This document shows positions 16,679 through 17,534 of a stretch of 64,000 bases of DNA, piece after piece; position 1 is the stretch's first letter; the number at the start of each line of letters is the position of its first letter. This DNA is from an uncultured Candidatus Saccharibacteria bacterium. GTDB taxonomy: Bacteria > Patescibacteriota > Minisyncoccia > Phycocordibacterales > UBA6899. The notes below the pieces were generated by a model that ran no database searches, was not told the origin of the DNA, and saw only the letters and a program-made list of their open reading frames with translations. The stretch spans positions 132,674-196,673 of the forward strand of contig CAYXYK010000003.1 of NCBI GenBank assembly GCA_964469335.1. Reading direction: 5' to 3'. A program made the position numbers and the translations under genes.

Positions 16679-17534
16679 ATGGCGAACCGGCACCTTTCAC
16701 GCAGTATCGTACTCCAGTCCCTCTTTGAGTGGGACTTCACCTCGCGCGACCTCACGCAGACCGAGGAGGTACTCGCACGCAATGTCGACGAATTCGCCCC
16801 GGGCCTGAACGACATGACGTTCATGTCGGAGCTCACAAAGAACATCCTCGCAAAGAAATCAGAACTTGACCTCATCATCGAAAAGGCCGCTCCCGCGTGG
16901 CCTATCGACCGCATCTCGGTGGTCGACAAAGGTCGCCATCAACGAAGCGATCGAACTCGCAAAGACGTTCGGTGGTGAGAACAGCGGCAAATTCGTCAAC
17001 GGTGTCTTAGGTGCCGTCTACAAGGAGATTGGTGAGCCCGGTAAAGACGAGACCACGCAGTCAAAGAACAACAAACCTCGCGAAGCGGTCGACCCCGCGA
17101 CCCTTCCGCTCGAGAATCTCGGCGGCGCGGTCGTCTATGCACGCCACGAAGGGGAGATCTATCTCGCACTCGTGCATGACATCTTCGGACACTGGACCCT
17201 CTCCAAGGGTCATATGCTCGAGGGAGAGAGCCCAGAGGACGGCACCAAGCGCGAACTCAAGGACGAGATCAATGCCGACATCACCATCATCGAAAAACTC
17301 GGAGAGAACGAATACATCGCCTCACACCCGGAGAAGGGGAAGATCCGTAAGCACGTCACCTACTTCCTCGCTGAAGCGCCGATGCAGGCACTCGAACTCG
17401 AAGCGGAGAAGGGTGGACTCGACGACGCACGTTGGTTCCAAGCCAAGGATATTGTCGATCTCAATATTTACGACGATATACTGCCTATCATCACGAAGGC
17501 ACTCACGCTCCTGATGAAGCCGGCCGGTTCGTAA
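16679..17534 (+). pseudogene. nusB: NusB antitermination factor fused to a NUDIX hydrolase domain, interrupted by a deletion and 1-nt frameshift near 16931
   Basis: Frame 2 encodes the NusB N-terminal part up to ...IDRISVVDK (ends 16930). Frame 0 resumes at 16932 with [21 protein letters not shown], then a NUDIX box [23 protein letters not shown]. About 19 aa (the AILRLA.YEL....VP.K segment) are missing between them. Confidence 0.5.

Follow-up and report, generated by a model that had tools for sequence, protein, structure and literature searches.

Whether the bacterium sampled here has lost NusB, or whether its sequence record misrepresents an intact gene, is the question raised by the gene at 16679-17534 of the window, i.e., the whole stretch of 64,000 nucleotides of DNA that was analysed. 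In this gene, the sequence encoding NusB is interrupted and its downstream part continues into a NUDIX hydrolase domain, which also raises the question of whether this fusion is a peculiarity of one strain or a property of its lineage. The initial annotation had considered an assembly error, a real pseudogene and a programmed +1 frameshift as explanations. Below, coordinates are those of the window unless a contig is named, and the features described lie on the + strand unless stated otherwise.

Organization of the gene in two reading frames

In the ORF list, the frame-2 ORF opens at ATG 16679 (MANRH...) and its codon 84 lies at 16928-16930, from which point it is out of frame until a TGA at 16976-16978 (tail and stop, 16928-16978), while the frame-3 ORF is open from 16866 and ends at TAA 17532-17534. 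Pfam NusB (PF01029) matched both frames, at profile positions 3-83 of 133 in the frame-2 ORF (E = 2e-8) and at positions 103-133 in frame 3 from 16932 (E = 1e-9). The TIGR01951 model was split likewise, with positions 2-79 in frame 2 and 99-130 in frame 3, out of 131. The two models thus agree on a NusB N-terminal half that starts at ATG 16679 and a C-terminal block in the other frame, as had been annotated. The two pieces scored 41.6 and 42.0 bits, each below the TIGR01951 cut-off of 88.35 bits for a full-length NusB. Judged by these profile matches, the gene belongs to the NusB family and its product, as written in the window, is an incomplete NusB, with a 99-aa NusB stump as all that the gene is predicted to make.

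For comparison, we used six syntenic contigs (L001-L006, from JGI 33000453xx and Logan SRR237025xx), all of which encode the closest relative of the fusion, a protein of 305 aa (P0001). Codons 1-83 of nusB::nudix (16679-16927, frame 2; Pfam and TIGR01951) cover helices alpha1-alpha4 up to D83; this part shares 98.8% DNA identity with the six contigs and is supported by the protein alignment too. Frame 3 encodes helices alpha6-alpha7, the BoxA-binding part of NusB (16929-17030; K105-I138 of the intact protein, Pfam positions 103-133, AF2 helices 104-119 and 121-138), followed by a flexible linker (17031-17108; residues 139-164, with pLDDT <50 for residues 141-156) and by the NUDIX domain with the TAA stop (17109-17534; residues 165-305). 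The NUDIX assignment of the initial annotation was borne out by a PF00293 match after the frame-3 NusB part, scoring 45.5 bits (cut-off, 21.1; E = 9e-12), and by a Foldseek TM-score of 0.90 to the Aquifex Ap4A hydrolase 3I7U.

A single 62-nt deletion

DNA alignments to L001-L006 and to contigs of a second strain (L100-L102) place the junction of a deletion at 16927/16928. Compared with the six syntenic contigs, the window shows a single gap of exactly 62 nt, so that CGCAACGTCCTCCGTATCGGTCTCTATGAACTCCTGTTCGGAGATAGAGCGGAAGTCCCCCC, found at 2198-2259 of L001, is absent between these two positions. The second strain, which encodes protein P0272, also has the 62 nt that are missing from the window. 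Apart from this, the window aligns to L001-L006 without gaps, at 97.9% identity in the 2,197 nt upstream and at 94.8% in the 802 nt downstream, and the gap is the only indel in the about 3 kb aligned to L001. A microhomology of 1 nt (C) was found at 16927. Since 62 nt equal 21 codons minus 1 nt, the deletion accounts both for the loss of R84-P104 and for the apparent extra base. The lesion had been described as a deletion of about 20 codons plus a 1-nt frameshift, of which the deletion holds, but the two lesions are one event; a conserved NusB segment is indeed missing, although it comprises 21 residues (R84-P104) and not about 19. The K of '...VVDK' at the end of the N-terminal half is a chance out-of-frame AAA, made of the last base of the Pro104 codon and the AA of the Lys105 codon.

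In the AlphaFold (AF2) model of P0001, the lost residues correspond to helix 81-96 and the loop before helix 104-119, and based on this model the deleted segment is NusB helix alpha5. All 118 full-length homologues retain this segment, with 12 of its 21 positions unchanged throughout. The E81-type residue and helix alpha6 contact BoxA RNA/NusE in the Aquifex and E. coli complexes, with alpha6/alpha7 carrying BoxA contacts (PMC3177189); helix alpha5 thus sits between two BoxA-contacting elements. The window gene lacks the seven-helix NusB fold, in which alpha5 lies between the Y69-G78/E81 element and alpha6. With the conserved segment gone and the frame broken, full-length NusB is impossible from the gene as written, in agreement with the initial annotation.

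The NusB-NUDIX fusion in Paceibacteria

The fusion itself is not restricted to this locus. When one genome per GTDB species was scanned, at least 558 genomes of Paceibacteria proved to have it, encoding intact proteins of about 303 aa, and the best 80 of these loci are continuous over residues 1-300. These 80 loci come from Lloyd-, Yonath-, Nomura-, Kaiser-, Adler- and Taylorbacteria and other Parcubacteria. All of the 120 best database matches carry PF01029 together with PF00293, with a length of about 300-306 aa; the named ones among them belong to Candidatus Lloydbacteria, Paceibacterota or Patescibacteria and are annotated just as 'NusB'. In a library of representatives at 50% identity, 159 clusters matched at E <= 1e-30. 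About 60 of the best 150 clusters listed are full-length fusions, and stand-alone NusB relatives of 140-150 aa also occur in this library. Based on these sequence comparisons, we consider nusB::nudix to be the standard form in Paceibacteria (Parcubacteria) and this locus to be close to Candidatus Lloydbacteria. The fusion had been called unusual, which applies when it is set against model bacteria but does not hold within Paceibacteria.

A full-text literature search returned no paper on a NusB-NUDIX fusion among the papers containing both words, as judged by title. We conclude that the fusion is genuine, of ancient origin and common across Paceibacteria, and that it is catalogued in databases, with no literature description found. 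An entire class of ultra-small bacteria has thus replaced plain NusB by a NusB tethered to a catalytically intact NUDIX hydrolase, encoded in a conserved cluster with RNase III.

The intact protein P0001 passes the TIGR01951 cut-off with 123.6 bits against 88.35, over positions 2-130. It comprises a complete seven-helix NusB domain and a NUDIX domain resembling Ap4A hydrolases, and its AlphaFold model (pTM 0.50) contains two confident domains and a disordered linker of about 25 residues. The linker opens with a GEPGKDE motif (residues 139-145 of P0001; 17031-17051), in which G139, E140, P141, G142 and K143 are invariant in 57 sequences. This invariance contrasts with the otherwise variable, disordered character of the inter-domain linker, and the motif may be a short site at which a partner docks.

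Some database proteins begin with 'MPPKVAINEA...' and resemble a recurrent split of the gene. One of them comes from contig L098 (GCA_964619195.1, CAZUEA010000023.1), where a scaffold gap of 10 Ns at 2869-2878, right after the start of an otherwise intact nusB, gives a truncated call of 185 aa consisting of the NusB C-terminus and NUDIX; this case shows how assembly gaps make false short forms of nusB::nudix. The other short form comes from a distant relative (L097; ENA ERZ4903055, k141_3231303), in which an in-frame TAA at 543-545 stands in place of the conserved Tyr92 codon, again within helix alpha5, so that the gene is called as two ORFs. This TAA may reflect either an error in sequencing or a nonsense allele. 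A short form as the normal conserved protein, an outcome that the initial annotation had allowed for, is therefore not what these records represent, the one being a scaffold gap and the other a nonsense codon.

Origin of the deletion

Considering the conservation of the fusion, the state of the gene outside the deletion is informative on the age of the lesion. Codon differences between the window and P0001 amount to 39 synonymous and 2 non-synonymous, of which 36 and 2 lie downstream of the frameshift. Because of this ratio, nusB::nudix is seen as a gene without decay, and the break must be either extremely recent or not biological. On balance, we favour the interpretation that the lesion is an assembly artefact or a young allele that is not fixed, and that the population most likely carries the intact gene; we hold this to be probable, with considerable room for doubt. 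The lesion would then be a local mis-join in a region common to several strains, or a very young, non-fixed loss-of-function allele, and in both cases it would be an accident that does not reflect the functioning state of the organism. The two options offered by the initial annotation, an assembly error or a real pseudogene, both stay live, with the lesion confined to the window sequence.

The junction was not recovered elsewhere. A 30-mer across the junction had no match in the genome_contigs or metagenome_contigs collections, a window-specific 41-mer had none in metagenome_contigs, and exact look-ups of both window ORFs returned no match. The window haplotype was also not found in an intact protein, P154 being present in none of the four members of the 90% cluster of P0001.

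In the Logan assembly of run SRR12404947, two contigs are 100% identical to the window, at 13406-16858 (L099) and at 16930-20812 (L013), and a third contig (L104) covers 20801-23578. The strain of the window is therefore present in this run, and both flanks of the lesion are independently confirmed. The same assembly leaves 71 nt with the junction unbridged, with the right contig beginning 3 nt from the junction. Contigs of two further runs begin at 16952 and 16968, which makes this conserved coding block an assembly-graph tangle where strain paths merge. Moreover, the window is identical to L001 over 209 nt and then, within 15 nt of the junction, changes to a divergence of about 10%, and this abrupt rise places the deletion junction at a haplotype switch.

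Other observations argue against an artefact. The left Logan end (16858) equals 16828 + 30, the L100-type strain differing at 16828, and it fits a strain SNP at k = 31; the right Logan end (16930) fits no simple two-allele model. As the Logan ends can also be explained by ordinary strain SNPs, they are no proof that the junction is without support, and these breaks may have nothing to do with the deletion. De Bruijn assemblers are unable to invent junction k-mers, which must thus come from reads, and at least some reads probably carry the deletion. The window contains no Ns and no other split gene was detected in it, which counts against a sloppy assembly.

We also searched for features that could have produced the junction, and found no repeat, overlap or hairpin that would provide a mechanism for a 62-nt mis-join, just the 1 nt of microhomology. 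A deletion between the nearest direct repeats, GGTCGACCGCAACG and GGTCGCCATCAACG (11/14 matches), was rejected, as it would take 73 nt and not 62; the nearby imperfect repeat GGTCGAC/GGTCGCC would likewise remove 73 nt. A hairpin-mediated deletion was rejected as well, as the intact region does not fold significantly (z = -1.6) and the base of its stem lies off the end points. A generally error-prone assembly was likewise discarded, since three further overlapping same-strand ORF pairs represent separate complete genes or are without a Pfam match.

Divergence of the window from the closest strain is mosaic at 15388-15409, 15957-16092 and 16912-17264, with tight clusters of substitutions between identical stretches. 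This pattern points to frequent homologous recombination between Lloydbacteria-like strains that occur together, or to a chimeric strain assembly.

The main alternative is that the deletion is real and fixed, i.e., that the strain recently lost NusB, and probably NUDIX too, by an illegitimate deletion of 62 bp and lives without NusB-dependent rRNA antitermination. The continuous sequence without Ns, the exact reproduction of both flanks by an independent assembly, the lack of a further frameshift, both within the window and across the 3 kb aligned to L001, and the fact that no assembly mechanism was identified are consistent with such a loss, as is the 1-nt microhomology, which is typical of illegitimate deletion. 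However, the segment is kept without exception in the full-length homologues (118 of 118) and the GTDB loci (80 of 80), no second nusB was found in the 64-kb window, and the 36 synonymous to 2 non-synonymous differences downstream would require an extremely young lesion. Besides, the junction occurred in no other public contig scanned and was left unbridged in the Logan assembly of SRR12404947. Taken together, we regard a fixed loss as possible but doubtful.

A division into two working products, a 99-aa NusB fragment and a separate protein of alpha6-alpha7 plus NUDIX re-initiated at TTG 16866, is very improbable. Frame 3 does stay open from 16866 to 17534, with the downstream frame perfectly kept, but a very recent lesion would leave the frame just as intact. 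Ahead of the NUDIX fold, TTG 16866 is the sole start codon and is not preceded by anything like a Shine-Dalgarno sequence; GTG 17172, the following one, already falls inside the fold, and no orthologue is arranged in this way, given that the database short forms trace to the gap in L098 and the TAA in L097.

Finally, a programmed +1 ribosomal frameshift at GAC-AAA-G that yields a shortened NusB-NUDIX protein, as the initial annotation had proposed, is hardly credible: tRNA-Lys could re-pair from AAA to AAG and a weak GGTGG lies 5 nt upstream, but the site arises solely as a by-product of the deletion and is not conserved, the 118 full-length homologues and the 80 GTDB loci all being continuous ORFs that include the 62 nt, the next zero-frame codon is an ordinary GGT, with the first stop 46 nt away and no rare or slow codon, and the product would be without the core helix alpha5.

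Returning to the favoured interpretation of an artefact or a non-fixed young allele, the lesion should be read as a quality flag only, in that a near-universal gene looks broken in one record. A loss of NusB in a CPR bacterium should not be claimed without read support.

Genomic neighbourhood

The gene lies between two conserved neighbours. Upstream, rpmF (ribosomal protein L32; 16276-16584) is a 102-aa PF01783 gene located on the 100%-identical contig L099, and L32 is found directly upstream on the same strand in 78 of the 80 GTDB loci. Downstream, rnc (RNase III; 19643-20344) was assigned by the Pfam families on identical proteins; RNase III lies downstream on the same strand in all 80 loci, within 450 nt in 74 of them. 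In the window, nusB::nudix and rnc are parted by a 2.1-kb insert (17535-19642, no strand assigned), a lineage-specific variable region of hypothetical ORFs in which identity to L001 falls from 82% to 69%. It is fast-evolving, and its gene content differs between L001, L007 and L013.

RNA folding predicts an intrinsic-terminator-like hairpin with a U-run after rpmF (16593-16625; -19.9 kcal/mol, z = -5.0), and none of 200 shuffled sequences was as stable. The hairpin is followed by UUUUGUUG. A consensus scan detected a promoter-like TTGACC-17-TATACT (16634-16662; 10/12 matches), whose function is predicted. This site ends 17 nt before the nusB ATG, implying a very short leader.

Three further stretches of the window are of interest in their own right. 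The non-coding sequence after nusB::nudix (17535-17737) is about 76% like 31852-31959, and positions 2863-2970 of L001 match both; a repeat search found no exact repeat shared by the two window stretches, and their likeness may reflect a dispersed non-coding element. At 32221-32308 (+), 88 nt match positions 2127-2214 of the bacterial LSU rRNA model (61 bits, E = 1e-15), corresponding to the L1-stalk region H76-78, within about 550 nt of apparently non-coding DNA. The neighbours of this stretch have no Pfam matches, and a local Rfam run with an E-value threshold missed the stretch, which could be an rRNA fragment or an L1-binding mimic. The ORF at 13356-14279 (+), without a Pfam match, has a third-position GC of 0.89, compared with about 0.6-0.7 in its neighbours, and long ORFs are open on the opposite strand too; it may be foreign or compositionally unusual.

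Identity of the NUDIX domain

NUDIX hydrolases were recognized by the box G-x5-E-x7-R-E-U-x-E-E-x-G-U together with a Pfam match above the gathering score. The window passes on the score given above, and its box (17208-17276) reads G198-x5-E204-x7-R212-E213-L-K-D216-E217-I-N-A220, with D for the first E of the EE pair and N for G. The family majority is REUKEEIN. All 118 homologues carry G198, E204, R212 and E217; 89% have E213, and 94% have E at position 216. With its catalytic box preserved, the domain probably functions as a hydrolase of the ApnA type, an assignment drawn from sequence and fold relatives.

The initial annotation had suggested an RppH- or NudC-like domain. This holds loosely for a remote likeness to RppH, but both models score far below their cut-offs and Ap4A/ApnA hydrolases are the closest relatives. 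NudC is defined by its equivalog score, a zinc-binding N-terminal domain and an SQPWPFPxS motif after the NUDIX box; the domain reached 17.4 bits with the NudC model (PRK00241; cut-off 158), and neither an SQPWPFP-like motif nor a Cys-rich domain was found in the sequence of the fusion. The closest fold and sequence relatives place the domain with the Ap4A/ApnA subfamily, an assignment that expresses resemblance only.

Proposed role of the intact protein

In the intact protein, NusB, together with S10, would bind BoxA in the nascent rRNA leader, and this binding would hold the NUDIX domain near the transcript 5' end. The tethered domain could then hydrolyse the 5'-triphosphate, an Np4N-type cap or local dinucleoside polyphosphates, while the leader stem of the same transcript would be cleaved by the RNase III that the neighbouring gene encodes. 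The intact NusB-NUDIX protein might thus act as a co-transcriptional RNA 5'-end enzyme on nascent pre-rRNA, alongside RNase III, a speculative proposal that we rate as rather unlikely. Such a role may include the removal of the triphosphate or of an Np4N/NAD-type cap, or the clearing of dinucleoside polyphosphates at the polymerase. The proposal is drawn solely from fold similarity, tethering and gene neighbourhood, and the lesion in the window adds nothing to it. If true, it would represent a physical link between antitermination and 5'-end decapping, undescribed in any bacterium. Should RNA 5' ends or caps prove to be substrates of the NUDIX domain, the fusion would also offer a simple, testable system for co-transcriptional rRNA 5'-end processing.

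Comparison with known systems

The N-terminal domain of the fusion closely resembles the NusB proteins of T. maritima (1TZT), E. coli (3D3B) and Aquifex (3R2C), with TM-scores of 0.85-0.87 to NusB structures, and the intact orthologue matches 1TZT at E = 2e-21. The counterparts (D83, K105 and F126) of the BoxA/NusE contacts E81, K101 and F122 are invariant; S10 (NusE) and BoxA RNA are putative ligands of the domain. In contrast to these proteins, the fusion adds a C-terminal linker and a NUDIX domain of about 165 residues in total and its gene lies between rpmF and rnc, while the window copy is without helix alpha5 and has a broken frame.

For the NUDIX domain, the best Foldseek match is the Ap4A hydrolase aq_158 of Aquifex (3I7U; TM 0.90, rmsd 1.8 A), followed by the Ap6A hydrolase Ndx1 of T. 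thermophilus (1VC8; TM 0.86) and by 1KTG and 4MPO (TM 0.75). Chlamydia CT771 (4ILQ) was matched by phmmer at E = 1e-8, and the C. elegans and human NUDT2 Ap4A hydrolases are among the closest relatives. The W-x-x-x-K-G-H-x-E-x-G-E context of the box is common to both the fusion and these hydrolases, with the catalytic glutamates complete. However, identity is just 22-27% and the domain of the fusion is joined to NusB, an ApnA-type substrate being putative. Likeness to RppH (PRK00714; BdRppH, 3EES) lies in the NUDIX fold, in a weak partial match to the RppH model (E = 5e-6) and in a Foldseek TM of 0.62-0.65 to BdRppH, clearly poorer than for the ApnA hydrolases; RppH would also offer an analogy for the action proposed on RNA 5' ends. 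The score of 24.9-26.5 bits over a partial stretch, compared with an NCBIfam cut-off of 116-139, separates the domain from the RppH equivalogs.

The prfB-type programmed +1 frameshift resembles the window gene in that a +1 shift would be needed to join its two frames, but the window site, made by the deletion, is without conservation, an in-frame stop or a hungry codon. A precedent in domain order is found in RsmB/Sun, the 16S rRNA m5C methyltransferase, where a NusB-fold RNA-binding domain is N-terminal to an RNA-directed enzyme, and the NusB part of the fusion also matches RsmB models. Nevertheless, the partner in RsmB is a methyltransferase, whereas it is a NUDIX hydrolase in the fusion, and the NusB part of the fusion is an equivalog-level true NusB and not a diverged paralogue.
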